Shown here one piece after another: positions 22,407 to 42,885 of a DNA stretch of 64,000 nucleotides (the stretch's first letter is position 1; each line of letters opens with the position of its first letter). The DNA comes from Escherichia coli (lineage in GTDB: Bacteria > Pseudomonadota > Gammaproteobacteria > Enterobacterales > Enterobacteriaceae), in NCBI RefSeq assembly GCF_003018115.1, contig NZ_CP027457.1; one strand, 5' to 3'. The notes beneath the pieces are model-generated. The model was given only the letters and a program-made list of their open reading frames with translations. It did no database searches and was not told where the DNA came from. The position numbers and the translations under genes are program-made.

Positions 22407-23906
22407 TTAACTCGCCGTTTCAGGCTTAAACACAATTTCCTGTTTTTCTTCATCTTCCTCGACGACTGGCGCAGTGCTGTGAATTTCGGCAACGCGTTTG
22501 CGCACACCAAACCAACCCACAACCAGCAGAAGGCCAATAATCGGCAGCGAAGCAATGGTATAAGTCCCGTTCGGGTAATCGAACGCCATCAGCACCAGTA
22601 CGCTCAGCAAAAACAATAACGTCAGCCAGGAAGTGAAGGGGGCACCGGGGAGTTTAAAACTGACATCTGCCGCTTTACCTTCTTTAATAGCCTTACGCAG
22701 ACGCATCTGGCAAACGATGATAAACGCCCATGAAGCGATGATTCCCAGCGACGCGAAGTTCAACACAATCTCAAATACGCGTGACGGCACCAGATAGTTG
22801 AGGAATACGCCGACGACATACACAACCAGTGTCGCCAGAATCCCGGCATACGGCACATGCTGACGGCTCATTTTCGCCATAAAACTCGGTGCGGAACCGC
22901 CCATCGCCATTGAGCGCAGAATACGCCCGGTGCAGTACAGGCCTGAGTTCAGGCTGGAGAGTGCAGCGGTCAGCACCACAATATTCATAATGCTGCCGAT
23001 ATACGGCACGCCAAGTTTAGAGAAGAAAGTCACAAAAGGACTCTGCCCGGCCTGGTATGCATTCCACGGCAGCAATAGCACCAGCAGAACCACCGAACCC
23101 ACATAGAACAGACCGATACGCCAAATAACACTGTTGATCGCTTTCGGCACCATCGTCTGTGGATCTTTACATTCACCAGCCGCAGTACCTACCAGTTCAA
23201 TCGATGCAAAGGCAAAAACCACCCCCTGGATAAGCACCAGTGCAGGCAGCAGCCCGTGCGGGAAGAAACCGCCATTATCGGTAATTAAATGGAACCCTGT
23301 GGTATTACCATCCAGCGGCTGACCACTACCGAGGAACACCGTACCCACCACCAGGAAGATCACAATAGCGAGCACTTTAATGAGTGCAAACCAGAACTCC
23401 ATCTCTGCGAACCATTTCACACCGATCATGTTCATGGTGCCTACGATGGTCAGCGCAGCGAGCGCAAAGACCCACTGCGGCACGTCGCCAAACGCCCCCC
23501 AGTAATGCATATACAGCGCTACAGCGGTGATATCGACAATCCCCGTCATCGCCCAGTTGATGAAATACATCCAGCCAGCAACATAAGCGGCTTTCTCACC
23601 CAAAAACTCACGGGCATAAGAGACAAAACTGCCACTGGAAGGGCGGTGTAACACCAGCTCACCCAATGCACGTAGAATAAAAAATGAAAACAGGCCGCAG
23701 ATCAAATAGACCAGTGCCAGTGCGGGCCCCGCCATTTGCAGTCGGGCTCCTGCACCTAAAAACAAGCCGGTGCCAATCGCGCCGCCAATGGCGATCATCT
23801 GTACCTGGCGATTGCCCATCGCTTTGTGATACCCCTCTTCGTGGGCATTAAGCCAGCGGCGTTTCGCGGCGTGTTGATCTGAAGTGTCGGTGTCGTGTTT
23901 ACTCAT
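22407..23906 (-). CDS. ansP: L-asparagine permease AnsP (APC family)
   Basis: Start at ATG 23906 (MSKHDTDTSD..., 499 aa) with GGGAGAG Shine-Dalgarno; 12-TM amino-acid permease pattern. Confidence 0.85.
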   Translation of the reverse strand: MSKHDTDTSDQHAAKRRWLNAHEEGYHKAMGNRQVQMIAIGGAIGTGLFLGAGARLQMAGPALALVYLICGLFSFFILRALGELVLHRPSSGSFVSYAREFLGEKAAYVAGWMYFINWAMTGIVDITAVALYMHYWGAFGDVPQWVFALAALTIVGTMNMIGVKWFAEMEFWFALIKVLAIVIFLVVGTVFLGSGQPLDGNTTGFHLITDNGGFFPHGLLPALVLIQGVVFAFASIELVGTAAGECKDPQTMVPKAINSVIWRIGLFYVGSVVLLVLLLPWNAYQAGQSPFVTFFSKLGVPYIGSIMNIVVLTAALSSLNSGLYCTGRILRSMAMGGSAPSFMAKMSRQHVPYAGILATLVVYVVGVFLNYLVPSRVFEIVLNFASLGIIASWAFIIVCQMRLRKAIKEGKAADVSFKLPGAPFTSWLTLLFLLSVLVLMAFDYPNGTYTIASLPIIGLLLVVGWFGVRKRVAEIHSTAPVVEEDEEKQEIVFKPETAS

Positions 23907-24172
23907 TGCTCTCCCTGATTGCTTTAATGAAAAAGTCATATAAGTTGCCATGAACAATGTTTATTCATCCTGGCGATGATAGTTATCACCATTATTCTTT
24001 ATGGGTATAAAACTATCGGCGCAGCATCCTACCCGTTATCGATAAACGATGCAAAACATCCCCTTACAATCCTGAAGGGGAATAATACAACTGACGAAAA
24101 AATGACAAATCCTTTTGCTGGTTAACCTGTGTACTGTCCTACACTTAATCTTTAAAAGATTGTGAGGGGCAT

Positions 24173-24790
24173 ATGATTAAGGTGTATGGCGTACCCGGAT
24201 GGGGCTCTACAATCAGTGAGCTGATGCTAACACTGGCTGATATTCCTTATCAGTTCTTTGATGTCAGTGGTTTTGACCACGAGGGAACTTCACGCGAGTT
24301 ATTGAAAACCCTGAACCCGTTGTGTCAGATTCCGACACTGGCGCTGGAAAATGACGAGATTATGACGGAGACAGCGGCGATTGCATTGATGGTTCTCGAT
24401 CGTCGCCCGGACCTTGCGCCACCGGTTGGGCGCGCCGAACGTCAGCTGTTTCAACGGCTATTGGTCTGGCTGGTTGCTAATGTCTATCCAACATTCACTT
24501 TCGCCGATTACCCTGAGCGTTGGGCTCCTGACGCACCTGAACAGTTAAAGAAGAATGTTATTGAATATCGAAAATCGCTTTATATCTGGTTGAATTCGCA
24601 GCTCACTGCTGAACCTTATGCGTTTGGTGAGCAACTAACGCTGGTGGACTGTTATCTTTGCACTATGCGCACATGGGGGCCTGGGCATGAATGGTTTCAG
24701 GATAATGCCACGAATATCAGTGCGATTGCTGATGCTGTATGTCAGTTACCGAAATTACAAGAAGTATTAAAAAGGAATGAAATTATTTGA
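24173..24790 (+). CDS. yncG: Glutathione S-transferase-like protein YncG
   Basis: 205-aa ORF with GST-type N-terminal thioredoxin-like fold signature. Confidence 0.8.
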   Translation: MIKVYGVPGWGSTISELMLTLADIPYQFFDVSGFDHEGTSRELLKTLNPLCQIPTLALENDEIMTETAAIALMVLDRRPDLAPPVGRAERQLFQRLLVWLVANVYPTFTFADYPERWAPDAPEQLKKNVIEYRKSLYIWLNSQLTAEPYAFGEQLTLVDCYLCTMRTWGPGHEWFQDNATNISAIADAVCQLPKLQEVLKRNEII

Positions 24791-24865
24791 GTGGGATACC
24801 AGAAGATTATGTTATTTATTATTCAGTAACTTTATCCACAATGATGGGCGTAATTAATTAAATTC

Positions 24866-25078
24866 ATGGTATGTTTTTTAATTTATATCACTCTCCTTTT
24901 CATTCAGCGTGTCTATTTCATTTCCTCTGAAAAGAAACTAACTATTCACATTGTGCAGATGGTTCAGTTGTTATCACAGGCATTCTATAATCTCAAAATG
25001 TTTTTAATGATGGATATGCTCGGAGTTGGAGATGCAATTAATATTAATACAAATAAAAATATCCGGCAGGTATGCTAA
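24866..25078 (+). CDS. yncH: Small uncharacterized protein, possibly YncH
   Basis: 70-aa ORF in the AT-rich region upstream of the vgrG/rhs island; assignment by position and length only. Confidence 0.4.
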   Translation: MVCFLIYITLLFIQRVYFISSEKKLTIHIVQMVQLLSQAFYNLKMFLMMDMLGVGDAININTNKNIRQVC

Positions 25079-25897
25079 AAGGATAAATGGCGTTCTCTGT
25101 ATTTATTCGCAATTATCTGTAGGACAAATATGGAGAGCTTGATGAGTCAGAGCTAAAACAGCAATTGATTAATAAACATGTTGATTTATTCAAGAAAATG
25201 GATGTATTTTAAATGTTGATTCTTAATATAACCTAATCAATAGATTATCAAGTGAGAGCTACACATTATTGGAGGGGCAGGGGAAAACACCATTTTGGGA
25301 ACAATGCATCAGGTACTCTTACCACTGAAGCAAGATCATCCGGCACCAGGTGGTGGTGCAGTGCTTTGGAAATGGTCCCCTCGGGGGAGTTGTCATTATT
25401 TTCTATGCTATTTGCTTATTATATTCATCAGGTGAATTTAATAAATTCCTAATTTGAAATATCCACTATTAAGCTAGTGTTTAACGACGTTAAGATGGCA
25501 ATGTGCAGATCATGTTATCAGGGTGGGGCGGTAGCGTATATTCCTTATACAAACCATCATTCATTTCAATGATTGTTATTGAATTATTTATTGTTGTGAA
25601 TAAAAAGACATTATGAATATTGGTTTGACTTTGCATATCAGGTTTTTTATTACTCGCTGTAATGTACGAGCCTGTCGTGAATAACGTCGAGAACCCATCC
25701 GTTGCGTTTGTGATTATTTTGTTGACTAAACAGACACCCGTTTCTCTGAAGTAAAATCCCAGACTAAATCATCACATAACCATGACATTTTTCTGATATT
25801 CCCCGGTAACGCCAGATGTCGACTCGCTTATCTCATCCGCCCGACATGTTGTACATGCAATATGTGCGGATTATTATTCATTTTCACGGAGGTTGCT

Positions 25898-28006
25898 ATG
25901 TCAACCGGATTACGTTTCACACTGGAAGTGGACGGCCTGCCACCGGACGCTTTTGCGGTGGTTTCCTTTCATCTCACCCAGTCACTCTCTTCACTCTTTT
26001 CCCTCGATCTCTCCCTGGTCAGCCAGCAGTTTCTCTCCCTTGAATTTGCGCAGGTGCTGGACAAAATGGCCTACCTGACAATATGGCAGGGTGATGATGT
26101 ACAGCGCCGGGTGAAAGGTGTGGTGACCTGGTTTGAACTGGGGGAGAACGACAAAAACCAGATGCTGTACAGCATGAAGGTGCACCCGCCGCTGTGGCGT
26201 GCCGGTCTGCGCCAGAACTTCCGTATCTTCCAGAACGAGGACATCAAAAGCATCCTCGGCACGATATTGCAGGAAAACGGGGTGACCGAGTGGAGTCCGC
26301 TGTTCAGTGAACCGCATCCTTCCCGTGAGTTTTGTGTCCAGTACGGTGAGACTGATTACGATTTCCTGTGCCGGATGGCGGCGGAGGAAGGCATCTTCTT
26401 TTATGAGGAGCATGCTTACAAAAGTACCGACCAGAGCCTGGTGCTGTGCGACACGGTCCGCCATCTGCCCGAATCTTTTGAAATCCCCTGGAACCCGAAC
26501 CCCCGTACCGAGGTGAGCACCCTCTGCATCAGCCAGTTTCGCTACAGCGCACAAATCCGCCCTTCTTCCGTGGTGACCAAAGACTACACCTTTAAACGCC
26601 CCGGCTGGGCAGGACGTTTTGATCAGGAAGGCCAGCACCAGGATTACCAGCGCACGCAGTATGAGGTGTATGACTACCCCGGACGTTTCAAGGGCGCCCA
26701 CGGGCAGAACTTTGCCCGCTGGCAGATGGAGGGCTGGCGAAACAATGCAGAAACCGCGCGGGGAATGAGTCGCTCGCCGGAGATATGGCCGGGACGGCGA
26801 ATTGTGCTGACGGGGCATCCGCAGGCGAACCTGAACCGGGAATGGCAGGTGGTGGCGAGCGATCTTCACGGCGAACAGCCGCAGGCGGTACCGGGACGCA
26901 GGGGTTCAGGCACCACGCTGGATAACCATTTTGCGGTAATACCGGCAGACCGGACATGGCGACCACAGCCGTTGCTGAAACCGCTGGTGGATGGCCCGCA
27001 GAGCGCCGTCGTGACGGGACCGGCAGGCGAGGAAATCTTCTGCGACGAACATGGTCGCGTGCGGGTGAAATTTAACTGGGACCGCTATAACCCGTCAAAC
27101 CAGGACAGTTCATGCTGGATCCGTGTGGCACAGGCGTGGGCAGGCACCGGCTTTGGCAACCTGGCGATACCGCGTGTGGGTCAGGAGGTGATTGTGGACT
27201 TCCTCAACGGCGATCCGGACCAGCCGATTATTATGGGGCGTACCTACCACCAGGAAAACCGCACACCCGGCAGCCTGCCGGGGACGAAGACGCAGATGAC
27301 CATTCGTTCGAAAACCTATAAGGGCAGCGGGTTTAATGAACTGAAGTTTGACGATGCGACAGGGAAAGAACAGGTCTACATCCACGCGCAGAAGAACATG
27401 AACACCGAGGTGCTGAATAACCGCACCACGGATGTGATAAACAACCATGCTGAGACCATTGGCAACAATCAGATGATTGCGGTTACCAACAATCAGATAC
27501 AGACGGTGGGCGTTAACCAGATAGAGACGGTGGGCAGTAACCAGATCATTAACGTGGGTTCTGTTCAGGTGGAAACGATTGGACTTGTTCGTGCGCTGAC
27601 CGTGGGCGTGGCGTACCAGACGACGGTAGGTGGCATTATGAACACTTCGGTGGCTCTGATGCAGTCCTCGCAGATCGGTTTGCATAAATCGTTGAGGGTC
27701 GGGCTGGGTTATGACGTCAAAGTCGGAAATAACGTTACCTTCACCGTTGGTAAAACGAAAAAGGATGATACCGGGCAGACCGCGATTTACTCCGCCGGTG
27801 AGCATCTGGAGCTCTGCTGTGGTAAGGCAAAGCTGGTGCTGACAAAGGACGGTCAAATTTTTCTCAACGGCACAAAAATTCATTTGCAGGGTAAGGAGCA
27901 GGTTAATGGTGACTCACTGTTGATTAACTGGAACTGTGCAGCCTCGAAATCCCCACCGAAGACCCCTGATGAAAAGCAGGATACGCCGGATATGAGAGAG
28001 TACTGA
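25898..28006 (+). CDS. vgrG: Type VI secretion spike protein VgrG (Rhs-element vgr gene)
   Basis: Start at ATG 25898 (MSTGLRFTLEVDG...) after GGAGG; gp27/gp5-like regions and C-terminal Val-Gly repeats (IQTVGVNQIETVGSNQIINVGSVQVETIG). Confidence 0.85.
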   Translation: MSTGLRFTLEVDGLPPDAFAVVSFHLTQSLSSLFSLDLSLVSQQFLSLEFAQVLDKMAYLTIWQGDDVQRRVKGVVTWFELGENDKNQMLYSMKVHPPLWRAGLRQNFRIFQNEDIKSILGTILQENGVTEWSPLFSEPHPSREFCVQYGETDYDFLCRMAAEEGIFFYEEHAYKSTDQSLVLCDTVRHLPESFEIPWNPNPRTEVSTLCISQFRYSAQIRPSSVVTKDYTFKRPGWAGRFDQEGQHQDYQRTQYEVYDYPGRFKGAHGQNFARWQMEGWRNNAETARGMSRSPEIWPGRRIVLTGHPQANLNREWQVVASDLHGEQPQAVPGRRGSGTTLDNHFAVIPADRTWRPQPLLKPLVDGPQSAVVTGPAGEEIFCDEHGRVRVKFNWDRYNPSNQDSSCWIRVAQAWAGTGFGNLAIPRVGQEVIVDFLNGDPDQPIIMGRTYHQENRTPGSLPGTKTQMTIRSKTYKGSGFNELKFDDATGKEQVYIHAQKNMNTEVLNNRTTDVINNHAETIGNNQMIAVTNNQIQTVGVNQIETVGSNQIINVGSVQVETIGLVRALTVGVAYQTTVGGIMNTSVALMQSSQIGLHKSLRVGLGYDVKVGNNVTFTVGKTKKDDTGQTAIYSAGEHLELCCGKAKLVLTKDGQIFLNGTKIHLQGKEQVNGDSLLINWNCAASKSPPKTPDEKQDTPDMREY

Positions 28007-28073
28007 TCCCGTACCTGTTCGATATTCATTAACAAACCAGCATTAAAAATAAACAGAAGAAGGAATTTGAATC

Positions 28074-31000
28074 ATGAGCGGAAAACCAGCGGCGCGTCAG
28101 GGAGATATGACTCAGTATGGCGGTCCCATTGTCCAGGGTTCGGCAGGTGTAAGAATTGGCGCGCCAACTGGCGTGGCGTGCTCGGTGTGTCCGGGCGGGA
28201 TGACCTCGGGCAACCCGGTGAACCCGCTGCTCGGTGCAAAAGTACAGCCCGGCGAGACGGACCTTGCGCTGCCCGGCCCGCTGCCGTTCATTCTCTCCCG
28301 CACCTACAGCAGCTACCGGACCCGGACGCCTGCACCGGTGGGCGTTTTCGGCCCCGGCTGGAAAGCGCCTTCTGATATCCGCTTACAGCTACGTGATGAC
28401 GGACTGATACTCAACGACAACGGCGGGCGGAGCATTCACTTTGAGCCGCTGCTGCCAGGGGAGGCGGTGTACAGCCGCAGCGAGTCCCTGTGGCTGGTGC
28501 GCGGTGGTAAGGCAGCACAGCCGGACGGCCATACGCTGGCACGGCTGTGGGCGTCGCTGCCGCCGGATATCCGGTTAAGCCCGCATCTTTACCTGGCGAC
28601 CAACAGCGCACAGGGGCCGTGGTGGATACTGGGGTGGTCTGAGCGGGTGCCGGGTGCTGAGGACGTACTGCCAGCGCCGCTGCCGCCGTACCGGGTGCTT
28701 ACCGGGATGGCGGACCGCTTCGGGCGGACGCTGACGTACCGGCGTGACGGACGGTGCCGGGCGTGAGTTCCGTCTGGTGCTGACCACACAGGCGCAGCGG
28801 GCGGAAGAGGCCCGGCAGCAGGCGGTCGTCGCCGGAGCAAAACGACCGGACATTCCTGATTCACTGCCGGAGAGCACAGAGTACGGCCCCGACAGGGGTA
28901 TCCGTCTTTCAGCGGTGTGGCTGATGCACGACCCGGCATACCCGGAGAATCTGCCCGGTGCGCCACTGGCGCGGTACACGTATACGGAAGCCGGTGAACT
29001 GCTGGCGGTATATGACCGCAGCAATACGCAGGTGCGTGCTTTCACGTATGACCCGCAGCACCCGGGCCGGATGGTGGCGCACCGTTACGCGGGAAGGCCG
29101 GAGATGCGCTACCGCTACGACGATACGGGGCGGGTGGTGGAGCAACTGAACCCGGCAGGGTTAAGCTACCGCTATCTTTATGAGCAGGACCGCATCACCG
29201 TCACCGACAGCCTGAACCGGCGTGAGGTGCTGCATACAGAAGGCGGGGCCGGGCTGAAGCGGGTGGTGAAAAAAGAACTGGCGGACGGCAGCGTCACGCG
29301 CAGCGGGTATGACCCGGTGGGGCGGCTTACGGCGCAGACGGACGCGGCGGGACGGCGGACAGAGTACGGTCTGAATGTGGTGTCAGTCGACATCACGGAT
29401 ATCACCACGCCGGACGGGCGGGAGACGAAATTTTACTATAACGACGGGAACCAGTTAACGGCAGTGGTGTACCCGGACGGGCTGGAGAGCAGCCGGGCAT
29501 ATGATGAGCTGGACAGGCTGGTAACGGAGACATCGCGCAGCGGGGAGACAGTACGCTACCGCTATGATGATGCGCACAGTGAATTACCGGCCACAACAAC
29601 AGATGCGACGGGCAGCACCCGGCAGATGACGTGGAGCCGCTACGGTCAGTTGCTGGCGTTCACCGACTGCTCGGGCTACCAGACCCGCTATGAATACGAC
29701 CGCTTCGGCCAGATGACGGCGGTCCACCGCGAGGAAGGCATCAGCCTTTACCGCCGCTATGACAACCGTGGCCGGTTAATCTCGGTGAAAGACGCACAGG
29801 GCCATGAAACGCGGTATGAATACAACGCCGCAGGCGACCTGACTGCCCTCATTACCCCGGACGGCAACCGGAGCGAGACACAGTACGATGCGTGGGGAAA
29901 GGCGGTCAGCACCACGCAGGGCGGGCTGACGCGCAGTATGGAATACGACCTTGCCGGACGCATCACCACGCTGACCAACGAGAACGGCAGCCGGAGTGAG
30001 TTTACCTACGATGCGCTTGACCGGCTGGTACAGCAGCGCGGCTTTGACGGGCGGACGCAACGTTACCACTATGACCTGACCGGAAAACTCACGCAGAGTG
30101 AAGATGAGGGGCTTGTCACCCTCTGGCACTACGACGAATCGGACCGCCTCACTCACCGCACGGTGAACGGCGAACCGGCAGAGCAGTGGCAGTATGATGG
30201 CCACGGCTGGCTGACAGAAATCAGCCACCTGAGCGAAGGCCATCAGGTGGCGGTGCATTACGGTTATGATGATAAGGGCCGCCTGGCCGGGGAGCGCCAG
30301 ACGGTGCATAACCCGGAGACGGGGGAACTGCTGTGGCAGCATGAGACAGAGCACGCATACAACGAACAGGGGCTGGCAAACCGCGTCACGCCGGACGGCC
30401 TGCCGCGGGTGGAGTGGCTGACCTACGGCAGCGGTTATCTTGCGGGGATGAAGCTGGGCGGGACACCTCTGGTCGAGTATACGCGGGACCGCCTGCACCG
30501 GGAAACTGCGCGCAGCTTTGGTAACGGAACGGGCAGTACAGCCGCATATGAACTGACCAGCACTTACACCCCCGCAGGCCGGTTACAGAGCCAGCACCTG
30601 AACAGCCTGATGTATGACCGTGACTACGTGTGGAATGACAACGGCGACCTGGTGCGCATCAGCGGCCCGCGACAGACGCGGGAATACGGCTACAGCGCCA
30701 CGGGCAGGCTGGAGAGCGTGCGCACCCTCGCACCGGACCTGGACATCCGCATCCCGTATGCCACCGACCCGGCGGGAAACCGGCTGCCGGACCCGGAGCT
30801 ACACCCGGACAGCACGCTCACGGCGTGGCCGGATAACCGCATCGCGGAGGATGCGCACTATGTTTACCACTATGATGAATACGGCAGGCTGACGGAGAAG
30901 ACGGACCGCATCCCGGCGGGTGTGATACGGACGGACGACGAGCGGACCCACCACTACCACTACGACAGCCAGCACCGTCTGGTGTTCTACACGCGGATAC

Positions 31001-32250
31001 AGCATGGCGAGCCGCAGGTGGAGAGCCGCTACCTCTGTGACCCGCTGGGACGGCGAATGGCGAAACGGGTATGGCGGCGGGAGCGTGACCTGACAGGATG
31101 GATGTCGCTGTCGCGTAAACCGGAGGTGACGTGGTATGGCTGGGACGGAGACAGGCTGACGACGGTACAGACAGACCAGACCCGTATCCAGACGGTCTAC
31201 CAGCCGGGGAGCTTCACGCCGCTCATCCGTATCGAGACAGAGAACGGCGAACGGGAGAAAATGCAGCGCCGCAGCCTAGCGGAGAAGTTACAGTCGGAAG
31301 GGAGTGAGGACGGTCACGGTGTGGTGTTCCCGGCTGAGCTGGTGAGGATGCTGGACAGGCTGGAGGAAGAAATCCGGGCAGGCCGCGTGAGCAGTGAAAG
31401 CCGGGCGTGGCTTGCGCAGTGCGGGCTGACGGTGGAGCAACTGGCCAGACAGGTGGAGCCGGAATACACACCGGCGCGAAAAGTTCATCTTTATCACTGC
31501 GACCACCGGGGCCTGCCGCTGGCGCTCATCAGCGAAGACGGCAATACGGCGTGGCGCGGGGAGTATGATGAATGGGGCAACCAGCTTAATGAGGAGAACC
31601 CGCATCATGTGTATCAGCCATACCGCCTGCCGGGGCAGCAGTATGATGAGGAGTCGGGGCTGTACTATAACCGCAACCGGTACTATGATCCGTTGCAGGG
31701 GAGGTATATTACCCAGGATCCGATTGGGCCAGTGGGGGGGTGGAATCCCTATAGTTATGTGCTTAATAATCCAGCCCAGTTTATTGACCCAACAGGTTTA
31801 ACTCAAGAGGACAATTGGACCTATGGTGAGGTAGGTAATAGCTGTGTTACGAGTCAACGCGATTTTACTCCCCCGCCCGGACTTGCGGATATGAAAGCCA
31901 GCATTGGCGCTGCCTGCTCAAGAAACAATGCTTCCAGAAACTGCCACCCCGTAGATGGTAGTAATGCTTCTGCACCATCGGATAAAGCCGCATGGGAAAA
32001 TATTCAAAATGCGACAAATGGTAAAGATTTATCTGGTGGTGGAAATATGTTTTGTGTAGGAAATGAGGACTGTGCGGTTGTTCATAGCTGTCGTGAAATA
32101 GTTAATGCTCGACACCCGGCAGGACGAGTGCGTGAACGTGTAACTCCGTTAACAACGTCAGGAACAGCAACGCTCAATGGAACAACAGTTTACTTTTATA
32201 ATGATCCCCGGAATGGTAATTGTCCTGCTCACGAATATATTCCTCAATAA
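28074..32250 (+). pseudogene. rhsE: PAAR-Rhs polymorphic toxin, copy 1, split by a frameshift near 28740-28766 (ORFs 28074..28766 and 28744..32250)
   Basis: N-terminal PAAR-like region, YD-repeat core, DPxGL boundary. Relative to copy 2 about 38 nt (encoding ...[12 protein letters not shown]...) is missing, shifting the frame. Symbol by K-12 position only. Confidence 0.7.
31801..32250 (+). other. Rhs copy 1 C-terminal variable toxin domain (CT1), function unknown
   Basis: About 149 aa following DPTGL at 31786..31800; drop in GC content; Cys-rich; no motif recognised. Confidence 0.6.
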
Positions 32251-32300
32251 AGAAAGGTGGCCAGACTAAGCTCTAGCCACATTTTTTGGAGATCCTTTTC

Positions 32301-32924
32301 ATGAAAAGGTTTTTTATAACATGTTGCGTTATGACATTATTTTTATTTGTTAAATGTAAAGCAGCGTGTGTAACTTCCTTATATGAGGTTCAGCAATCGC
32401 TCTTTACATACATTTATTTGATTAGACAAGACCCTGTTCATTTTGATTCATATATTAAGAATGTGCATAACGAATTAAAAATATTCCATGATATTGATAA
32501 AGCCATGAATATAGCCTCAGATATGGTCAAAATTATTGATATAAAGACCCGTTTATCATTTAATAATGATTTATATATATTACAAGGGGAGCGACAGTAT
32601 GCAATAGTTAAGAGTGAAGGGGAAAGTAGTCAATTAAAATCATCAGCATTTATCATATCTAATTACCCACCATTTAAAAACAAAGTTCTGTTAATTTTAT
32701 CCGCTACTAGTCCCGTTCAGTTGGTTATATTGTCTTTTGATCAATGTCTTAATGTGGAGGTGTTATTTGATTCAATGTCTCCAGTTTTCGCTAAGTATAG
32801 AGAAGATATTAGTGCAACATTACCATTATGGAAGGTTATTTTGACAAAAAATGATATAGAATTATATGAGTACCATAGAACAAATCCATACTCACTTAAC
32901 AAATTATTGAGCATGTCAAAATAA
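32301..32924 (+). CDS. Putative immunity protein for Rhs CT1 (signal peptide/lipoprotein-like)
   Basis: AT-rich ORF directly downstream of rhs; start at ATG 32301 (MKRFFITCCVMTLFLF...) after GGAG; hydrophobic N-terminus with Cys. Confidence 0.6.
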   Translation: MKRFFITCCVMTLFLFVKCKAACVTSLYEVQQSLFTYIYLIRQDPVHFDSYIKNVHNELKIFHDIDKAMNIASDMVKIIDIKTRLSFNNDLYILQGERQYAIVKSEGESSQLKSSAFIISNYPPFKNKVLLILSATSPVQLVILSFDQCLNVEVLFDSMSPVFAKYREDISATLPLWKVILTKNDIELYEYHRTNPYSLNKLLSMSK

Positions 32925-33121
32925 CGGTCAAGTATTCAACGTTGTAATATTATTCCTTTTGCTGAGTGTCTCGAACGGCTAAAGTTGACGTAAAATGCCA
33001 CGTTTTGTGGGCAAACCGAATCGGTTAAAAAGCATGGTCCGGGAAAAGCTAAACATCAGCGCTATCGGTGCCAAATGTGCAGCAGGCCTTTCCAGCCTGA
33101 TTACCAGGGCAGGGCGGGATC

Positions 33122-34410
33122 AGGGAAAGATCATCAGAAGTTCACTTTTTGTACTAAATAATTTGCATTTTATATTTAAAAATTGAGATATTCCTCATTA
33201 CCTGAAGCTGTTTTTTATTGCTTATACATGATCAAATACTCCTTACATAATTAAGGAGAACAAAATGGAACTTAAAAAATTGATGGAACATATTTCTATT
33301 ATCCCTGATTACAGACAAGCCTGGAAAGTGGAACATAAATTATCGGATATTCTACTGTTGACTATTTGTGCCGTTATTTCTGGTGCAGAAAGCTGGGAAG
33401 ATATAGAGGATTTTGGTGAAACACATCTCGATTTTTTGAAGCAATATGGTGATTTTGAAAATGGTATTCCTGTTCACGATACCATTGCCAGAGTTGTATC
33501 CTGTATCAGTCCTGCAAAATTTCACGAGTGCTTTATTAACTGGATGCGTGACTGCCATTCTTCAGATGATAAAGACGTCATTGCAATTGATGGAAAAACG
33601 CTCCGGCACTCTTATGACAAGAGTCGCCGCAGGGGAGCGATTCATGTCATTAGTGCGTTCTCAACAATGCACAGTCTGGTCATCGGACAGATCAGGACGG
33701 ATGAGAAATCTAATGAGATTACAGCTATCCCAGAACTTCTTAACATGCTGGATATTAAAGGAAAAATCATCACAACTGATGCGATGGGTTGCCAGAAAGA
33801 TATTGCAGAGAAGATACAAAAACAGGGAGGTGATTATTTATTCGCGGTAAAAGGAAACCAGGGGCGGCTAAATAAAGCCTTTGAGGAAAAATTTCCGCTG
33901 AAAGAATTAAATAATCCAGAGAATGACAGTTACGCAATTAGTGAAAAGAGTCACGGCAGAGAAGAAATCCGTCTTCATATTGTTTGCGATGTCCCTGATG
34001 AACTTATTGATTTCACGTTTGAATGGAAAGGGCTAAAGAAATTATGCGTGGCAGTCTCCTTTCGGTCCATAATAGCAGAACAAAAGAAAGAGCCAGAAAT
34101 GACGGTCAGATATTATATCAGTTCTGTTGATTTAACCGCAGAGAAGTTCGCCACAGCAATCCGAAACCACTGGCACGTGGAGAATAAGCTGCACTGGCGT
34201 CTGGACGTGGTAATGAATGAAGACGACTGCAAAATAAGAAGAGGAAATGCAGCAGAATTATTTTCAGGGATACGGCACATCGCTATTAATATTTTGACTA
34301 ATGATAAGGTATTCAAGGCAGGGTTAAGACGTAAGATGCGAAAAGCAGCCATGGACAGAAACTATCTGGCGTCAGTCCTTGCGGGGAGCGGGCTTTCGTA
34401 ATCTTGCCCT
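33122..34410 (+). mobile_element. H-repeat (H-rpt, ISAs1-family) element, copy 1
   Basis: About 1.29 kb unit bounded by imperfect inverted repeats AGGGAAAGAT ... ATCTTGCCCT; three near-identical copies in the window. Confidence 0.8.
33265..34401 (+). CDS. ISAs1-family transposase (H repeat-associated protein), copy 1
   Basis: 378-aa [31 protein letters not shown]...; DDE-type transposase family. Confidence 0.85.
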
Positions 34411-35114
34411 GGGGCAACCTGCTTAATGAGGAGAACCCACATCACCTGTATCAGCCATACCGCCTGCCGGGGCAGCAGCATGATGAGGAGTCAGGGCTTT
34501 ATTATAACCGTCACCGGTACTATGACCCGCTACAGGGGAGGTATATCACCCAGGATCCAATCGGGCTAAGAGGTGAATGGAATCTGTATAAATATCCATT
34601 AAACCCTGTTCGGTTTATAGATTCTTTGGGTTTAAAATTCCATGTTAACGGTGATCCAAGTGATTTTAATCAGGCTGTTGAGTATTTAAAACAAGATTCA
34701 CGAATGAAAGAAGCTATAGATTTTTTATCAAGCTCTGAAGAAACCATAAAGATAGAGTATATTGATGAAACCGACGTTAGATTTGACCTGGATAAAATGA
34801 CTATATATTGGAATAGTAAGGCGGCTTTATTTTGTTCAACTGATTTAAAATCGAAATCACAATCACCTGCATTAGGTTTGGGGCATGAGTTTGCTCATGC
34901 GCACTTATATCTTATTGATAAGGATGGTTATATGGGGCTTGTGAGACGTGCGGATGAACAATATAAAAATAAAGAAGAGGCGAGAGTTATCACTTTAATT
35001 GAACAGCATGCGGCGAAAACTTTAGGTGAGTGTACCAGAACAGCATATAATGGAGTGTATTATCGTGTGAATACACCAACGCAGACGGCAACAATAAATG
35101 GCACGCCAGAATAG
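34404..35114 (+). CDS. Orphan Rhs C-terminal fragment with HExxH (zincin-like metallopeptidase) toxin domain (orphan CT-a)
   Basis: Begins at the H-rpt right end with the rhs core 3' end ([18 protein letters not shown]...DPIGL...[13 protein letters not shown]), then a divergent domain containing [10 protein letters not shown]; probably lacks its own start codon. Confidence 0.65.
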
Positions 35115-35575
35115 TGAGATTTTTCATGATGAAATATTTGATGGCTTTATTGTCTCTATTTTCTGCTTCGGTATTGGGGATGGGGCGAGTGAATGATTTA
35201 TGTGGAATAGATAGTGTGAAAACGATAGAAATAATTAATCTTCCAGCATATGTTACCACCTTAACCCCGCTTAGCAAGGAAGGTCTCAAGAGAATATACA
35301 AACATAAAGTGGTGGTGAATGGGGTTAGCGATTTTTATGCTGGTGAGATAATTGATCTATTGCAAATGAAGTATTTCAGGAAGGAGGAGGATAACGATAT
35401 AAGATGGGGGGTTAACATTGTTTCGAATAAAAATAATAAATGTGAAATTTATTTTGATGGTTTTGGTGAATGTGGAAGCGTGAATGGCATTAATGTATGT
35501 TTTGAAAAAAATGAAATGATATATTGGATTAAAAAAGAAATCCCTTTTCTGTCGCAAGAAATAGATGGGCTTTAA
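35114..35575 (+). CDS. Putative secreted immunity protein for orphan CT-a
   Basis: ORF overlapping the toxin stop; likely start at ATG about 35126 (MMKYLMALLSLFSASVLG..., signal peptide); AT-rich. Confidence 0.6.
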   Translation: MRFFMMKYLMALLSLFSASVLGMGRVNDLCGIDSVKTIEIINLPAYVTTLTPLSKEGLKRIYKHKVVVNGVSDFYAGEIIDLLQMKYFRKEEDNDIRWGVNIVSNKNNKCEIYFDGFGECGSVNGINVCFEKNEMIYWIKKEIPFLSQEIDGL

Positions 35576-35651
35576 ATGGTAGGGCAATATTCAAAGACAG
35601 TATAGGTAACTATTTGTATGGACATGTAAGGTAAAAGAAAAGGAATAAACC

Positions 35652-38600
35652 ATGAGCGGAAAACCGGCGGCGCGGCAGGGCGACATGACCCGCAAGGGAC
35701 TGGATATTGTGCAGGGTTCAGCGGGTGTGCTGATAGGTGCGCCGACGGGAGTGGCCTGTTCGGTGTGTCCGGGAGGGATTACCTATGCTAACCCGGTGAA
35801 CCCGGTGCTGGGTGCGAAGGTGCTGCCGGGCGAGACGGACCTTGCGCTGCCCTGCCCGCTGCCGTTTATTCTTTTCCGCGCCTACAGCAGCTACCGGACC
35901 AGAACACCCGCGCCGGTGGGGGTGTTTGGTCCCGGCTGGAAAGCGCCCTTCGATATCCGCTTACAGATACGCGATGAAGGCCTGATACTCAACGACAGCG
36001 GCGGCAGGAGCATTCACTTTGAGCCGCTGTTTCCCGGCGAGATAAGCTACAGCCGCAGCGAGTCACTCTGGCTGGCGCGGGGCGGAGTAGCGGCGCAGCA
36101 CAGTTCGCAGCCGCTAAGCGCGCTCTGGCAGGTGCTGCCGGAAGATGTTCGCCTGAGTCCGCATGTGTACCTGGCGACAAACAGCCTTCAGGGGCCGTGG
36201 TGGATACTCAGCTGGCCGGAGCGGGTGCCGGGGGCGGACGAGGTGCTGCCGCCGGAGCCGCCCGCATACCGGGTGCTGACGGGCGTGGTGGACGGCTTCG
36301 GGCGGACGCTGGCCTTTCACCGGGCAGCGGAGGGTGACGTGGCGGGCGCGGTGACGGGGGTGACGGACGGCGCGGGCCGCCGTTTTCACCTGGTGCTGAC
36401 CACACAGGCGCAGCGGGCGGAAGAGGCCCGTAAACCGCACACCGCTTCGTTATCTTCCCCTGACAGTCCCCGCCCTCTCTCAGCTCCTTCCTTCCCCGAC
36501 ACGCTGCCCGCCGGTACAGAGTACGGTGCCGATAACGGTATCCGGCTGGAGGCGGTATGGCTGACACACGACCCGGCATACCCGGATGAACAGCCGACTG
36601 CGCCGCTGGCGCGCTACACGTACACGGCCGGTGGTGAACTGCGGGCGGTGTATGACCGCAGCGGGACGCAGGTGCGCGGGTTTACTTATGATGCGGAGCA
36701 CGCCGGGCGGATGGTGGCGCACCATTATGCGGGTAGGCCGGAGAGCCGCTACCGGTATGATGATACCGGTCGGGTGACGGAGCAGGTCAACCCGGAGGGG
36801 CTGGACTACCGCTTTGAGTACGGAGAGAGCCGGGTAATCATCACGGACAGCCTGAACCGGCGGGAGGTGCTGTACACGGAAGGCGAGGGTGGCCTGAAGC
36901 GGGTGGTGAAGAAGGAGCATGCCGACGGGAGCATCACCCGCAGCGAGTATGATGAGGCGGGGAGGCTGAAGGCGCAGACGGATGCGGCGGGGCGGCGGAC
37001 GGAGTACCGGCTGCATATGGCGTCTGGAAAGCTGACTTCAGTGGTACTGCCGGACGGCAGGACGGTACGGTATGGTTACAACAACCAGTTGCAACTGACG
37101 TCAGTGACATATCCGGATGGTTTACGCAGCAGCCGGAAATATGACCGTCAGGGCAGGCTGGCGGAAGAGACCTCGCGCAACGGTAACATTACGCGCTGGT
37201 TTTATGATTCTTCCCGCAGTGGCCTGCCCTGTGCGGTGGAAGACGGAACCGGGGTGAGGCGGAGAATAACGCGAAACCGGTACGGTCAGCTTCAGGCGTT
37301 TACGGACTGCTCGGGGTACACGACGCGGTATGAGTATGACCGGTACGGTCAACAAATCGCCGTTCACCGGGAAGAAGGCATCAGCACTTACAGCAGTTAT
37401 AACCCGCGCGGTCAACTGGTCAGTCAGAGGGATGCGCAGGGGCGTGAAACCCGTTATGAGTACAGCGCCGCAGGAGACCTGACAGCAACGGTATCACCGG
37501 ACGGTAAACGCAGCACCATCGCATATGATAAACGCGGGCGTCCGGTGAGTGTGACGGAAGGCGGTCTGACGCGCAGCATGGGGTATGACGCTGCCGGGCG
37601 CATCACCGTGCTGACCAACGAGAACGGCAGCCAGTCCACGTTCCGGTATGACCCGGTTGACAGGCTGACTGAACAGCGCGGTTTTGACGGCCGGACGCAA
37701 CGTTACCACTATGACCTGACCGGAAAACTCACACAGAGTGAAGACGAGGGGCTTATCACCCTCTGGCACTACGATGCGTCGGACCGCATCACGCACCGGA
37801 CGGTGAACGGCGACCCGGCAGAGCAGTGGCAGTATGATGAGCACGGGTGGTTAACCACCCTCAGCCATACCAGTGAAGGCCACCGCGTGTCGGTCCACTA
37901 CGGCTATGACGATAAAGGCCGCCTGACCAGTGAGCGCCAGACGGTGGAGAACCCGGAGACGGAGGAACTGCTGTGGCAGCATGAGACAGAGCACGCATAC
38001 AACGAGCAGGGGCTGGCAAACCGCGTCACGCCGGACAGCCTGCCGCCGGTGGAGTGGCTGACGTATGGCAGCGGCTATCTGGCGGGCATGAAGCTGGGCG
38101 GGACGCCGCTGCTGGAGTTCACGCGCGACCGCCTGCACCGTGAGACGGTGCGCAGCTTCGGCAGCAGGGCAGGCAGTAATGCCGCATATGAACTGACCAG
38201 CACATACACCCCCGCAGGCCAGTTACAGAGTCAGCACCTGAACAGCCTGGTATATGACCGTGACTACGGGTGGAATGACAACGGCGACCTGGTGCGCATC
38301 AGCGGCCCGCGACAGACGCGGGAATACGGCTACAGTGCCACGGGCAGGCTGGAGAGCGTGCGCACCCTCGCACCGGACCTGGACATCCGCATCCCGTATG
38401 CCACGGACCCGGCGGGCAACCGGCTGCCGGACCCGGAGCTGCACCCGGACAGTACCCTCACAGTGTGGCCGGATAACCGCATCGCGAAGGATGCGCACTA
38501 TGTTTACCACTACGATGAATACGGCAGACTGACGGAGAAGACGGACCGCATCCCGGCGGGTGTGATACGGACGGACGACGAGCGGACCCATCACTACCAT

Positions 38601-39845
38601 TACGACAGCCTGCACCGCCTGGTCCATTACATCCGTATCCAATATGAGGAGCCACTGGTGGAGAGCCGCTACCTCTATGATCCGCTGGGCCGCCGGACGG
38701 GTAAACGGGTGTGGCGGCGGGAGCGTGACCTGACGGGGTGGATGTCGCTGTCGCGTAAACCGGAGATGACATGGTACGGCTGGGACGGAGACCGCCTGAC
38801 GACGGTACAGACAGACACCACGCGAATCCAGACGGTCTACCTGCCGGGGAGCTTCACGCCGCTCATCCGCATCGAAACGGAGAACGGCGAACGGGAGAAA
38901 GCGCAGCGTCGCAGTCTGGCGGAGAAGTTACAGTCGGAAGGGAGTGAGGACGGTCACGGTGTGGTGTTCCCGCCTGAACTGGTGATGATGCTGGACAGGC
39001 TGGAGGGAGAGATACGGGCAGACCGCGTGAGCCGTGAAAGTCGCCAGTGGCTGGCGCAGTGCGGACTGACGGTGGAGCAACTGGCCAGACAGGTGGAGCC
39101 GGAATACACACCGGCGCGAAAAGTTCATCTCTATCACTGCGACCACCGTGGCCTGCCGCTGGCGCTCATCAGCGAAGACGGCAATATAGCGTGGAACGCG
39201 GAGTATGATGAGTGGGGCAACATGCTGAACGAGGAGAACCCGCATCACCTGTATCAGCCATACCGCCTTCCGGGTCAGCAGTACGATGAGGAGTCGGGGC
39301 TGTACTATAACCGGAACCGGTACTATGATCCGTTGCAGGGGAGGTATATCACCCAGGACCCGATAGGGCTGATGGGGGGATGGAACCCTTACCTTTATCC
39401 GTTAAATCCTGTCACAAATACTGACCCTCAGGGGTTAGAAGCGATTCTTCCTGGTCCGTTCCCCTTCCCAATTCCATTGCCAAAAAGTCCTGTACAGCAG
39501 GAAGCAGATGCAAATGCAGCAAAAACATTGACAAAATGGTGGAAAAACTTTGGAGATGCCATTAATAATCCGCCACCTCCTGGTAATTGTTCTAATGATT
39601 ATTATGAACATCTGAAAAATCAAAAAGAAGCTATTTGCAACCAAAAAAGAAAGTGTTACCCAACCGATAGTTGTGAAACTATACTTCAGAAAGGTGTGTA
39701 TGGTCTTGCTTGTGTATCAGCAAGGAATAATATTATGAATCAATGTTTTAATGGAGGTGATTTACGGCATCAGCTTGAAAGAGAAACGGTCAGGGGAACT
39801 ATGATGTCATGTACTACATTGGCTGTAATAAAAGGATGTTTATAA
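35652..39845 (+). CDS. Intact PAAR-Rhs polymorphic toxin, copy 2 (1397 aa)
   Basis: AAGGA Shine-Dalgarno; N-terminal PAAR-like region (CSVCPGG), YD repeats, conserved ...PxxxxDPxGL boundary (DPQGL at 39423..39437), variable C-terminus. Confidence 0.9.
39438..39845 (+). other. Rhs copy 2 C-terminal toxin domain (CT2), Cys-rich, function unknown
   Basis: About 135 aa after DPQGL; Pro-rich linker then Cys-rich segment (CSNDYYEHL...[14 protein letters not shown]...CVSARNN...C); AT-rich. Confidence 0.6.
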
Positions 39846-40370
39846 ATGGGAAAAGACGAGATCATAGATTATATTCAGAAAACGTTTTCTGAATATCCAG
39901 ATTATTTGAAAAATGGGGTCGTTGATGAAGACAACATTGCATATTGCCATGACGCTATAAACCTTTTTTCTGGAAAGAGTTGGATTGAATTAATGGCCAG
40001 TGATCTTTACCATTCTGAAGATGCTGTCATGTGTCTCACTAAACCAGCATTCTCATATTATATTGCAGCCTATTTAAAACTTTTTATTGAAAATTATTAC
40101 GAAGCTGATGCTTTAGTGGATACTATTTTAAATATGCTCACTCCTCCTGTTAGGAATGGTATCCCCAGCACTACATGGATAGCAAAAAATCTTGATTGCT
40201 TTAGTCGTAATAAAAGGGTGGCTATTTCTTTTACATTCCAATATTTATGTAATGAATATAATGATCCAAATACTGAAAAGGCGTTAAATATATATTGGGG
40301 ACAGTATCTGAATGAATCATTGCTTATTAAAAATGTACAGAACTCTAAAAATAAATGTAAATCACAGTAA
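39846..40370 (+). CDS. Putative cytoplasmic immunity protein for Rhs CT2
   Basis: 174-aa ORF whose ATG overlaps the rhs stop (TAAATG); no signal peptide; AT-rich. Confidence 0.65.
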   Translation: MGKDEIIDYIQKTFSEYPDYLKNGVVDEDNIAYCHDAINLFSGKSWIELMASDLYHSEDAVMCLTKPAFSYYIAAYLKLFIENYYEADALVDTILNMLTPPVRNGIPSTTWIAKNLDCFSRNKRVAISFTFQYLCNEYNDPNTEKALNIYWGQYLNESLLIKNVQNSKNKCKSQ

Positions 40371-40374
40371 GACA

Positions 40375-40575
40375 GAATCAAGCAGAAATCGTGGGCGTGG
40401 TTCGCACCCTGACGGAGGGTGTAGCGTGTACTAGATCACAGTGAGCGACATCAAAGCTTGGTCACGTTCTGGCATTACGATGAAGCCGACCGCCTGACGC
40501 ACCGTACCGTGAATGATGAAGATGCCGAGTGCTGGCAGTACAACGAACGGGGCTAGCTGACGGAAAAAGACGAGC
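40375..40575 (+). repeat. Degenerate vgrG-like and rhs-core-like sequence relics
   Basis: 40380..40440 translates to ...EIVGVVRTLTEGVA... (VgrG VG-repeat-like); 40455..40570 translates to [32 protein letters not shown]-stop (Rhs core-like, compare 30115..30230). Confidence 0.55.
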
Positions 40576-40582
40576 AGCGCAT

Positions 40583-41870
40583 AGGGAAAGATCATCAGAA
40601 GTTCACTTTTTGTACTAAATAATTCGCATTTTATGTTTAAAAATTGAGATATTCCTCATTACCTGAAGCTGTTTTTATTGCTTATACATGATCAAATACT
40701 CCTTACATAATTAAGGAGAACAAAATGGAACTTAAAAAACTGATGAAACATATTTCTATTATCCCCGATTACAGACAAGCCAGGAAAGTAGAACATAAAT
40801 TGTCAGATATTCTACTGTTGACTATTTGTGCCGTTATTTCTGGTGCAGAAGGCTGGGAAGATATAGAGGATTTTGGGGAAACACATCTCGATTTTTTGAA
40901 GCAATATGGTGATTTTGAAAATGGCATTCCTGTTCACGATACCATTGCCAGAGTTGTATCCTGTATCAGTCCTGCAAAATTTCACGAGTGCTTTATTAAC
41001 TGGATGCGTGACTGCCATTCTTCAGATGATAAAGACTTCATTGCAATTGATGGAAAAACGCTCCGGCACTCTTATGACAAGAGTCGCCGCAGGGGAGCGA
41101 TTCATGTCATTAGTGCGTTCTCAACAATGCACAGTCTGGTCATCGGACAGATCAAGACGGATGAGAAATCTAATGAGATTACAGCTATCCCAGAACTTCT
41201 TAACATGCTGGATATTAAAGGAAAAATCATCACAACTGATGTGATGGGTTGCCAGAAAGATATTGCAGAGAAGATACAAAAACAGGGAGGTGATTATTTA
41301 TTCGCGGTAAAAGGAAACCAGGGGCGGCTAAATAAAGCCTTTGAGGAAAAATTTCCGCTGAAAGAATTAAATAATCCAGAGCATGACAGTTACGCAATCA
41401 GTGAAAAGAGTCACAGCAGAGAAGAAATCCGTCTTCATATTGTTTGCGATGTCCCTGATGAACTTATTGATTTCACGTTTGAATGGAAAGAGCTGAAGAA
41501 ATTATGCGTGGCAGTCTCCTTTCGGTCAATAATAGCAGAACAAAAGAAAGAGCCAGAAATGACGGTCAGATATTATATCAGTTCTGCTGATTTAACCGCA
41601 GGGAAGTTCGCCACAGCAATCCGAAGCCACTGGCACGTGGAGAATAAGCTGCACTGGCGTCTGGACGTGGTAATGAATGAAGACGACTGCAAAATAAGAA
41701 GAGGAAATGCAGCAGAATTATTTTCAGGGATACGGCACATTGCTATTAATATTTTGACGAATGATAAGGTATTCAAGGCAGGGTTAAGACGTAAGATGCG
41801 AAAAGCAGCCATGGACAGAAACTATCTGGCGTCAGTCCTTGTGGGGAGCGGGCTTTCGTAATCTTGCCCT
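40583..41870 (+). mobile_element. H-repeat (ISAs1-family) element, copy 2
   Basis: Same terminal sequences as copy 1. Confidence 0.8.
40725..41861 (+). CDS. ISAs1-family transposase (H repeat-associated protein), copy 2
   Basis: 378-aa ORF nearly identical to copy 1 with a few substitutions. Confidence 0.85.
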
Positions 41871-42486
41871 GCCAGGGCAGCAACACGATGAGGAGTCGGG
41901 GCTGTATTATAACCGTCACCGGTACTACGATCCGTTGCAGGGGTGGTATATCATCCAGGACCCGATTGGGCTGAAGGGGGGATGGAATCTGTACCAATAT
42001 CCGCTGAATCCAGTGCAACACGTTGATCCATTAGGGCTTAGTACTATGATAATAGGTAACGGCCCCGTTCCTGATAATCCTTTTGGGCATGCTGCGGCGG
42101 CAAATCGATATGGATTAATGAGTTCGGGAACTGGGGATGAGATGGGAGCCTCTGTCTCTGATTATTTTAAAAAGATGCAACCCCGCAGAGATACCTGGAT
42201 TTGGATAATAGATACAACAGATGAAGAAGAACAATGTATGATGAATAAGGCAATAGACCTTAATAAAAAACTAAAAACTATTAACCTCGGGCCTCTTCCT
42301 GTTTTAAATAATTGTTTTAGCCGAACGAACATGATTTTTGAGGCGTGCGGGTTTAACAACCCCTCTATGAATACAAATGCGCCTATAAGCCTACAAGTGC
42401 TCGGTGAGCTTTATGGATATCAAAGATATATTATGCCTAAAGGTCCTTTCACTGGATTCCCATTTGAATTTCAAGAGGTAAAGTAA
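41839..42486 (+). CDS. Orphan Rhs C-terminal fragment with unknown toxin domain (orphan CT-b)
   Basis: From the H-rpt right end: [35 protein letters not shown]...[13 protein letters not shown], then a divergent about 149-aa domain ([10 protein letters not shown]..., two Cys). Confidence 0.6.
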
Positions 42487-42885
42487 ATGGAAATGCTTGG
42501 GAAGATATTATTGATAATTATTTCCATGATAATTATATCTTGTGATTATTATAATGCTGGCATGGACTATCAAGATAATATAGCCCTCGAGCAAGTCGTA
42601 ACATGGGATTCTGATAATATATTCACACCTAATATCTTTGAACATAATGGAAGATGTTTTATGAAGAAAAATGAAACATGGATGTTATTAAATGGAGATG
42701 CAACACCAAACATTAGAACAATGAGCAATAAGAAAATAGAATGCCTGGAGAAGAGTGAAGTAGAATGGGCTAGTAGGGTTTGCGACAGTATCACAGACAA
42801 GGAAAGGGAAAATCTGAAGGCATTAATATGTAGCAAACCAGCTAAATCAGTTAATACAGGCAAAAGACCAGCGTTAGGATATTGA
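42487..42885 (+). CDS. Putative lipoprotein immunity protein for orphan CT-b
   Basis: 132-aa ORF abutting the toxin stop; N-terminal hydrophobic segment ending in a lipobox-like IISC. Confidence 0.6.
   Translation: MEMLGKILLIIISMIIISCDYYNAGMDYQDNIALEQVVTWDSDNIFTPNIFEHNGRCFMKKNETWMLLNGDATPNIRTMSNKKIECLEKSEVEWASRVCDSITDKERENLKALICSKPAKSVNTGKRPALGY

Follow-up and report, generated by a model that had tools for sequence, protein, structure and literature searches.

Gene Content and Modular Structure of the yncG-vgrG Interval

The AT-rich interval between yncG and vgrG was analyzed within a 64-kb stretch of the Escherichia coli chromosome (hereafter the window), in which the gene order is pqqU-yncE-ansP-yncG-yncH-vgrG-rhsE. 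The interval (24791-25897) precisely fills the gap between the yncG stop (24790) and the vgrG start codon (ATG, 25898-25900), and its part next to vgrG contains a match to the ops (operon polarity suppressor) element, the recruitment and pause site of RfaH. An earlier prediction made on this DNA (hereafter the original prediction) regarded the interval as a single 1.1-kb leader of vgrG. Instead, it is a composite of three modules, namely yncH, a locus-specific spacer, and a vgrG-linked leader, and only the last of these (~490 bp) belongs to the vgrG-rhs module. The AT-rich interval is partly conserved backbone (yncH and the spacer) and not island DNA throughout. The original prediction missed both this modular structure and the ops element at 25527-25538.

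The GC content of the interval is 35.5%, compared to 49.7% for the window, which places it at the 5th percentile among all 1107-bp windows of the stretch, and 100-bp sub-windows reach minima of 23-29%. The GC plot is therefore in agreement with the strong AT-richness originally claimed, and the A+T content is well above average, as in regions silenced by H-NS. The A/T tracts, also put forward as a feature, amount to six runs of A or T of at least 5 bases, where approximately five would occur by chance at 64.5% A+T according to our own estimate; they are no extra feature of the sequence given its composition.

In 3539 of 5426 complete E. coli genomes, 80% or more of the interval is present, always flanked by yncG and the vgrG-rhs (rhsE) locus and downstream of pqqU-yncE-ansP. 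Strain F9792 is 100% identical over the entire interval. Over 24791-25830, the K-12 ortholog has 99.8% identity, and a 498-bp query starting at 25400 has 100% identity over 25400-25830. In K-12, the interval is kept to 25830 and then joined to the interior of the rhs core. The deletion at this junction (25830/25831) removes vgrG together with the rest of the leader and the 5' portion of rhsE, which explains the rhsE pseudogene and the missing vgrG, while the ops element and the promoter proposed below are retained.

The first module contains yncH (24866-25078, + strand), which encodes a 70-amino-acid DUF5445 protein (Pfam PF17520, E-value 1.3e-39; 134 bits against a cutoff of 25) and is annotated as yncH in K-12 and other strains. 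In line with the single credible small open reading frame (ORF) originally proposed, only yncH has family support; the other small ORFs, including those in the spacer, had no match in Pfam or NCBIfam. In some strains, yncH has a frameshift or an internal stop, and some annotations treat it as a pseudogene or shift its start. Moreover, its substitutions lack a third-position bias, so that its status as a functional gene is uncertain.

The second module, the locus-specific spacer (25079-25408), includes a GC-richer patch (25250-25400, 48-51% GC) and a weak terminator-like hairpin (25376-25388). A query of 25079-25420 was found in 3575 genomes, with a median of one copy per genome and a maximum of two, and the spacer has no similarity elsewhere within the window. 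Its GC-richer patch was considered as a functional element and set aside as unexplained filler, given its single-copy median, its predicted RNA fold, which is no better than that of shuffled sequences (z = -0.85), and the lack of similar sequences in the window.

The third module, the vgrG-linked leader (25409-25897, + strand), was duplicated together with vgrG, as a paralog of ~78% identity lies directly upstream of the vgrG adjacent to cusS. The identity between the two leaders is unevenly distributed. It is highest in a 49-nucleotide (nt) core (25491-25539, 94%), followed by the AT-rich block upstream of the core (25430-25490, 88.5%), and decreases downstream to 82.4% (25540-25624) and 62-74% in the distal segments (25625-25879), with 83.3% around the Shine-Dalgarno sequence of vgrG (GGAGG, 25888-25892). 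Among strains with the same locus type (L038, L039, and L040), the segment 25540-25897 differs by only 0.3-1.1%, and the spacer, yncH, and yncG differ by 1.2-4.7%. This low divergence could reflect a recent sweep, gene conversion with vgrG, or constraint.

An ops Element in the Conserved Core of the vgrG Leader

The 49-nt core, the most conserved element of the interval, reads TAAGAT-N6-GTGCAGAT-N6-ATCAGGGTGGGGCGGTAGCGTAT. Across families its consensus is TAnnAT-N6-GTGCAGAT-N6(-13)-ATCAGGGTRGRGCGGTAGCRT, and the 5' half, GTGCAGAT (25503-25510, + strand), is invariant in the alignments. The 3' half contains GGCGGTAGCGTA (25527-25538, + strand), which matches the ops consensus GGCGGTAGCGTG at 11 of 12 positions and has an intact GGTAGNNT, the best-conserved part of the element; both the consensus and this conserved part were taken from the preprint of Taillefer, Desjardins and Cascales (2025). 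The element lies on the non-template strand, in the + orientation of vgrG and all genes of the island behind it, and within an untranslated 5' leader, ~360 nt upstream of the vgrG ATG. Translation of the core is not indicated by the three ORFs that run over it (two on the + strand and one on the - strand), as indels of 1 and 4 nt disrupt them in the paralog. The composition, the module structure, and the match to ops, with its strand and conservation, are direct observations on the window.

Matches to ops with one mismatch occur three times in the window, compared to 0.18 expected, and the match at 25527-25538 is the only one that is both non-coding and intact in GGTAG. The near-ops 12-mer GGCGGGAGCGTG occurs at 31076-31087 and 38716-38727 (+ strand) within rhs coding sequences; these copies are unlikely to recruit RfaH since their GGTAG core is broken and they are translated. 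In the leader of the cusS-linked vgrG paralog, ops takes the variant form AGCGGTAGCATA (locus L003, 6001-6453). Leaders of this type are the commonest class among the metagenome matches, with 47 identical copies.

Distribution of the Core at a Cargo Hotspot

The core is far more widespread than the rest of the leader. A 60-bp query covering most of it (25488-25547) matched 5291 of the 5426 E. coli genomes, with at least 80% of the query aligned in 4047. The region between ansP/yncG and yddH (25409-44200 in the window) is a hotspot in which at least five alternative cargo sets are found behind the same core: vgrG-rhsE, as in the present window; another VgrG-DcrB-Rhs set; small hypothetical genes with a GNAT acetyltransferase; two PAAR-VgrG-DUF4123 modules in strain CFT073; and, in genomes of the sequence type 131 (ST131) kind, only ISEc1, inserted within the core. 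The original suggestion of an H-NS-silenced entry point for an island fits the AT-richness, the H-NS binding reported for the K-12 ortholog (see below), and the cargo hotspot, but the variable cargo has its boundary within the interval, at approximately 25409-25540, and not at either end.

Insertion sequences were observed at the core itself. In an ST131-type genome, ISEc1 (ISAs1 family, H-repeat) sits directly after the ATCAGGG of the core and the ops element is removed (L006, 5001-5245), while in CFT073 an ISAs1-like insertion-sequence end, CAGGGAAAGA, starts 8 nt after ops. Together, these two cases suggest that the element favors the core sequence as a target.

Outside E. coli, the motif was identified in E. 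albertii, E. whittamii (two loci), another Escherichia species, Superficieibacter, and Brenneria, in one genome per species. It is always oriented toward co-directional downstream genes, and the flanks are otherwise unrelated. In Superficieibacter, E. whittamii (downstream of hrpA), and Brenneria, the motif precedes arrays of small AT-rich genes without known families (L010, 3311-3878, - strand; L016, 2498-3760; L028, 2878-5640; and L029). Most cargo genes behind the motif in these other genera had no Pfam family; one gene of the Brenneria array is ComJ-like (a nuclease-inhibitor family), and one of the E. whittamii array encodes DUF7021. The arrays may represent orphan immunity genes. A metagenome scan for new flank families yielded 120 matches, all of them E. 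coli variants, and a plasmid search returned only records resembling the E. coli chromosome.

H-NS and RfaH at Orthologous and Related Loci

Binding of H-NS is supported by published K-12 data. Sites for H-NS were marked in the K-12 spacer between yncH and rhsE by genomic SELEX (systematic evolution of ligands by exponential enrichment) (Shimada, 2014), and K-12 position 1527862, corresponding to 25788 in the window, is bound by H-NS according to chromatin immunoprecipitation sequencing (ChIP-seq) (Kahramanoglou, 2011; tabulated by Fitzgerald, 2023). The interval resembles H-NS-silenced xenogeneic regions in its low GC content, the published H-NS occupancy of the K-12 ortholog, and its many promoter-like sequences. 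Unlike such regions in general, it appears, from its ops match, to carry a specific signal for counter-silencing during elongation.

The closest known counterpart is the c1882-c1889 locus of CFT073, where GGCGGTAGCGTA is located at 1715753, between a yncG remnant and c1882 (PAAR) and tssI/vgrG (Hustmyer, 2022; PMC9765446); we confirmed the gene order around c1882 in the CFT073 sequence record. In that study, the c1882 ops was classed as one of eight bona fide RfaH sites, and the locus was named a cryptic RfaH-regulated locus. In an hns stpA double deletion, the RfaH ChIP-seq signal covers c1882-c1889, and the locus is bound by H-NS (PMC9765446). The two loci share their position downstream of ansP and yncG or its remnant, an identical ops 12-mer, and the placement of ops before a co-directional operon for type VI secretion system (T6SS) spike and effector proteins, and their cores match at 35 of 37 positions. 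On the other hand, the CFT073 cargo consists of PAAR-VgrG-DUF4123 modules instead of vgrG-rhsE, and the sequences upstream of the -10-like hexamer (see below) and downstream of ops are unrelated to those of the window, where yncG is intact and yncH is present. Experimental support comes from other strains, as H-NS binding at the K-12 ortholog and as RfaH occupancy downstream of the identical ops in CFT073, and RfaH may, by orthology, bind in the window as well.

Similarities also exist to the JUMPStart/ops leaders of rfaQ, rfb/wzx, wza, and kps, which have an ops element on the non-template strand and a long untranslated leader, contain a similar CAGGG...GCGGTAGCRT segment, and precede long, horizontally acquired, H-NS-bound operons related to the cell envelope. 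The canonical JUMPStart, however, has a second GGTAGC repeat (CAGTGy.yTGGTAGCTG...) and CCAGGGGCGGTAGC without a 3-4-nt insert, whereas the leader in the window has the upstream half GTGCAGAT-N6-ATCAGGGTRGRG, a single GGTAGC, and the 3-4-nt insert. In comparison with wzx, wza, rfaQ, and kps of CFT073, it lacks the canonical 39-bp arrangement in which the second GGTAGC repeat is joined to CCAGGGGCGGTAGC. The different upstream half and the single GGTAGC indicate an ops leader of a distinct context and not a canonical JUMPStart, although it would act in the manner of a JUMPStart leader.

A further link between RfaH and the T6SS is known from the sci1 cluster of enteroaggregative E. coli (EAEC), which requires RfaH and ops; the variant GGCGGTAGCGTA is also listed beside a PAAR gene in EAEC 042 (Taillefer, Desjardins and Cascales, 2025 preprint). 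The sci1 elements ops1 and ops2 have in common with the present locus, as proposed here, the control of T6SS genes by RfaH and ops in E. coli, and the same variant occurs in EAEC 042. They differ in being internal intergenic elements of a structural T6SS cluster that have been mutagenized, while the element described here is a putative RfaH site in the 5' leader of an auxiliary effector island of the vgrG-rhs type. No literature linking RfaH or ops to rhsE or Rhs elements was found. The kind of element and its CFT073 ortholog are already published, so the novelty here is modest and consists of the ops core shared by rhsE-type and cusS-type leaders, its near-universal presence in E. coli at a cargo hotspot, and the -10-like hexamer at a fixed distance.

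Candidate Promoter and Transcript Start

An ops element functions only if it is transcribed, and the relevant start must therefore lie upstream of 25527. In each of the five flank families, a hexamer of the form TAnnnT (TAAGAT, TATGAT, TACAAT, TAAAAT, and TAACCT) precedes GTGCAGAT by exactly 6 nt, compared to a background of ~3% per position; in the cusS paralog, which belongs to the TAAGAT family, the distance is 7 nt. On the basis of this fixed offset, TAAGAT at 25491-25496 (+ strand) is proposed as the -10 element, which would place the transcript start near 25503, at about 1,527,577 of K-12 NC_000913.3, and ops at approximately +25 to +36. The predicted distance of ~25 nt from start to ops is shorter than the 67-817 nt listed for the CFT073 units (PMC9765446). 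The conserved AT-rich block directly upstream (25430-25490, + strand), whose conservation extends to type-B loci, E. albertii, and E. whittamii, may contain a -35 element, an UP element, or an activator region, and the best -35 candidate is TTAAGC (25469-25474).

The original proposal that the vgrG-rhs promoter lies in this interval gains plausibility from the binding of the sigma-70 RNA polymerase holoenzyme to the K-12 spacer between yncH and rhsE in vitro, as observed by genomic SELEX (Shimada, 2014), although consensus promoter hits are not enriched, as discussed below. Weaker sigma-70 promoter-like hits are numerous in the interval. A sigma-70 promoter, TTGACT-17-TATTAC (25625-25653, + strand), was predicted in the same study (Shimada, 2014) and is located downstream of ops. 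No part of the leader is less conserved: its identity to the paralog is 62%, and the paralog has an 8-nt deletion in the promoter spacer.

Other regulators were also considered. A sigma-54 promoter was rejected because the GG/GC spacing is unsuitable, and the RpoN SELEX peak (1527534, older coordinates) falls in rhsE and not in the leader. A resemblance of the upstream block to an RcsB box, seen by eye, was dropped as too weak. For FlhDC, genomic SELEX reportedly gave a weak peak of intensity 11 between yncH and rhsE of K-12, at old coordinate 1525236, which corresponds to ~25138 in the window by our conversion.

From the proposed start, the 5' untranslated region would extend for ~395 nt. Its predicted fold over the whole length is no better than that of shuffled sequences (z = -1.0). 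The stretch 25714-25817 (+ strand) is C-rich and G-poor, with C/G ratios of 2.0-2.3 in 78-nt windows, and is a plausible loading region for Rho (Rho utilization, rut).

Proposed Regulation and Alternative Explanations

We propose that the composite interval controls the vgrG-rhs island through H-NS silencing, a weak promoter, and the loading of RfaH at ops, and we assign this explanation a probability of roughly 65%. H-NS, together with StpA, would coat the AT-rich DNA and keep initiation off under laboratory conditions. When initiation does occur, the weak promoter with the TAAGAT hexamer would start a transcript near 25503. RNA polymerase would then reach GGCGGTAGCGTA, pause, and recruit RfaH, which would take the place of NusG on the polymerase and suppress pausing, Rho-dependent termination, and H-NS-bridged roadblocks over the ~395-nt leader and the island of vgrG, rhs, immunity, and orphan genes. 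We infer the exact promoter, the transcript start, the involvement of Rho, and the function in the present strain. Overall, the findings point to control that acts on elongation as well as initiation, from a relevant start ~395 nt upstream of vgrG. RfaH is known to act at long operons that were horizontally acquired and are bound by H-NS (PMC9765446), and the co-directional unit of ~19 kb behind the leader fits this role.

Several observations weigh against this explanation. The RfaH signal in CFT073 was seen only in cells without H-NS and StpA, and the same data set gives the start of the transcription unit as not available (Hustmyer, 2022; PMC9765446). RfaH has been reported at only two operons in wild-type K-12, which implies that under standard conditions the copy in K-12 is either silent or without function. 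The -35 matches are weak (at most 4 of 6 positions), only three consensus promoter hits were found compared to 5.9 expected from shuffled sequences, and no transcript start for the region is among the entries listed in the Cappable-seq and SMRT-Cappable-seq supplements. Weak -35 elements would nevertheless fit a promoter dependent on de-silencing or on an activator. Transcripts from the only published promoter prediction (25625-25653) would begin downstream of ops and bypass RfaH. Moreover, the leader after ops (62-82% identity to the paralog) is no more conserved than the third-codon positions of the two vgrG paralogs (77-94%), and therefore shows no constraint of its own. Finally, given the good Shine-Dalgarno sequence of vgrG, ribosome recruitment by RfaH is not obviously needed.

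A rival explanation holds that the interval is no more than an AT-rich leader silenced by H-NS, with at least one sigma-70 promoter, such as that at 25625-25653, so that only initiation is controlled and ops is a non-functional relic in this locus type. The AT-rich composition, the binding of H-NS and the holoenzyme to the K-12 spacer together with the promoter predicted there (Shimada, 2014), and the report of RfaH at only two operons in wild-type K-12 are all consistent with this. However, the predicted promoter is the segment that has diverged most from the paralog, whereas the ops core is the most conserved and persists across five cargo types and several genera, and the identical ops in CFT073 is occupied by RfaH once silencing is lifted (PMC9765446). 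We consider control of initiation only to be a secondary possibility, with odds of about one in five.

It is improbable that the core serves as a recombination or insertion target at the left junction of vgrG/rhs cargo exchange instead of a transcription signal. The core does lie at the left edge of the variable cargo, both flanks differ in some locus types, and insertion sequences are found inside it (ISEc1 in ST131-type genomes) or close behind ops (CAGGGAAAGA in CFT073). Yet no recombinase gene is associated with the core, its orientation to the downstream genes is fixed in every instance, and a crossover site would not be expected to have a -10-like hexamer at a constant distance; the sequence also matches ops and is occupied by RfaH in vivo in CFT073. 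The two roles are compatible, as a conserved leader can double as a homology anchor.

Even less probable is an unannotated small RNA or small protein as the source of conservation. Several ORFs of 30-66 amino acids and a hairpin followed by a T-rich run (25376-25388) could be taken as signs of one, but an Rfam scan of 23900-26500 found no family at an E-value ≤ 1, neither of the two folds described above exceeds those of shuffled sequences, the ORFs over the core are disrupted in the paralog and without Pfam or NCBIfam matches, and terminator-like sites are at chance level (one found, 1.2 expected). A PhoB-regulated promoter linking vgrG-rhs to phosphate limitation is the least credible explanation, because the Pho-box-like site TATCAGAAAAATGTCATG (25783-25800, - strand) coincides with a PhoB ChIP-seq peak at K-12 position 1527862 (25788 in the window) that is weak and of the lowest class (score 1), expression was not determined in the source data, and the authors judge such sites in H-NS-bound AT-rich DNA to be transcriptionally inert and to reflect a shared AT preference (Fitzgerald, 2023).

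Returning to control by RfaH, Rhs/VgrG effector islands stay silent under laboratory conditions, and little is understood of what turns them on. Given an ops element in the leader, relief of H-NS repression at the promoter would not suffice, and RfaH would be needed through the 395-nt leader and the ~19-kb, AT-patchy island. Such an element would also tie auxiliary toxin modules to the elongation regulon of lipopolysaccharide (LPS), capsule, and the core T6SS, and would account for the retention of one short GC-rich motif in almost every E. coli despite the exchange of the genes downstream.

A broader and more tentative idea, which we think has somewhat less than even odds, is that the 49-nt core is a portable cassette for RfaH-dependent expression, placed before any T6SS effector or immunity cargo at the ansP-yddH hotspot and also present, with a variant ops, at the cusS-linked paralog. 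If so, K-12 would hold a third, cryptic RfaH target before the rhsE remnant, and RfaH would couple the expression of auxiliary vgrG-rhs modules to that of LPS, capsule, and the main T6SS. The arrays in Superficieibacter, Brenneria, and the second E. whittamii locus may then be orphan immunity genes kept expressible by RfaH.

The Downstream vgrG-rhs Island

The first gene of the island is vgrG (25898-28006, + strand), which encodes a protein of 703 amino acids. All genes of the island are on the + strand, and the co-directional unit ends at ~44.2 kb, just before yddH. Besides vgrG, the island contains a split rhs, ORFs of the size of immunity genes, three ISAs1 copies, a second full rhs, and orphan tips. 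In the first of the two Rhs genes, which begins with a PAAR-like N-terminus, the reading frame is divided between two overlapping ORFs (28074-28766 and 28744-32250) whose frames differ, possibly due to a frameshift in the present strain. Three ORFs of 378 amino acids (33265-34401, 40725-41861, and 43060-44196) are interleaved with orphan modules of rhs C-termini and the full-length rhs (35652-39845). The starts of these three ORFs, with the sequence just upstream, are 93-95% identical to the start of a K-12 transposase gene of the ISAs1 family (ISEc5).

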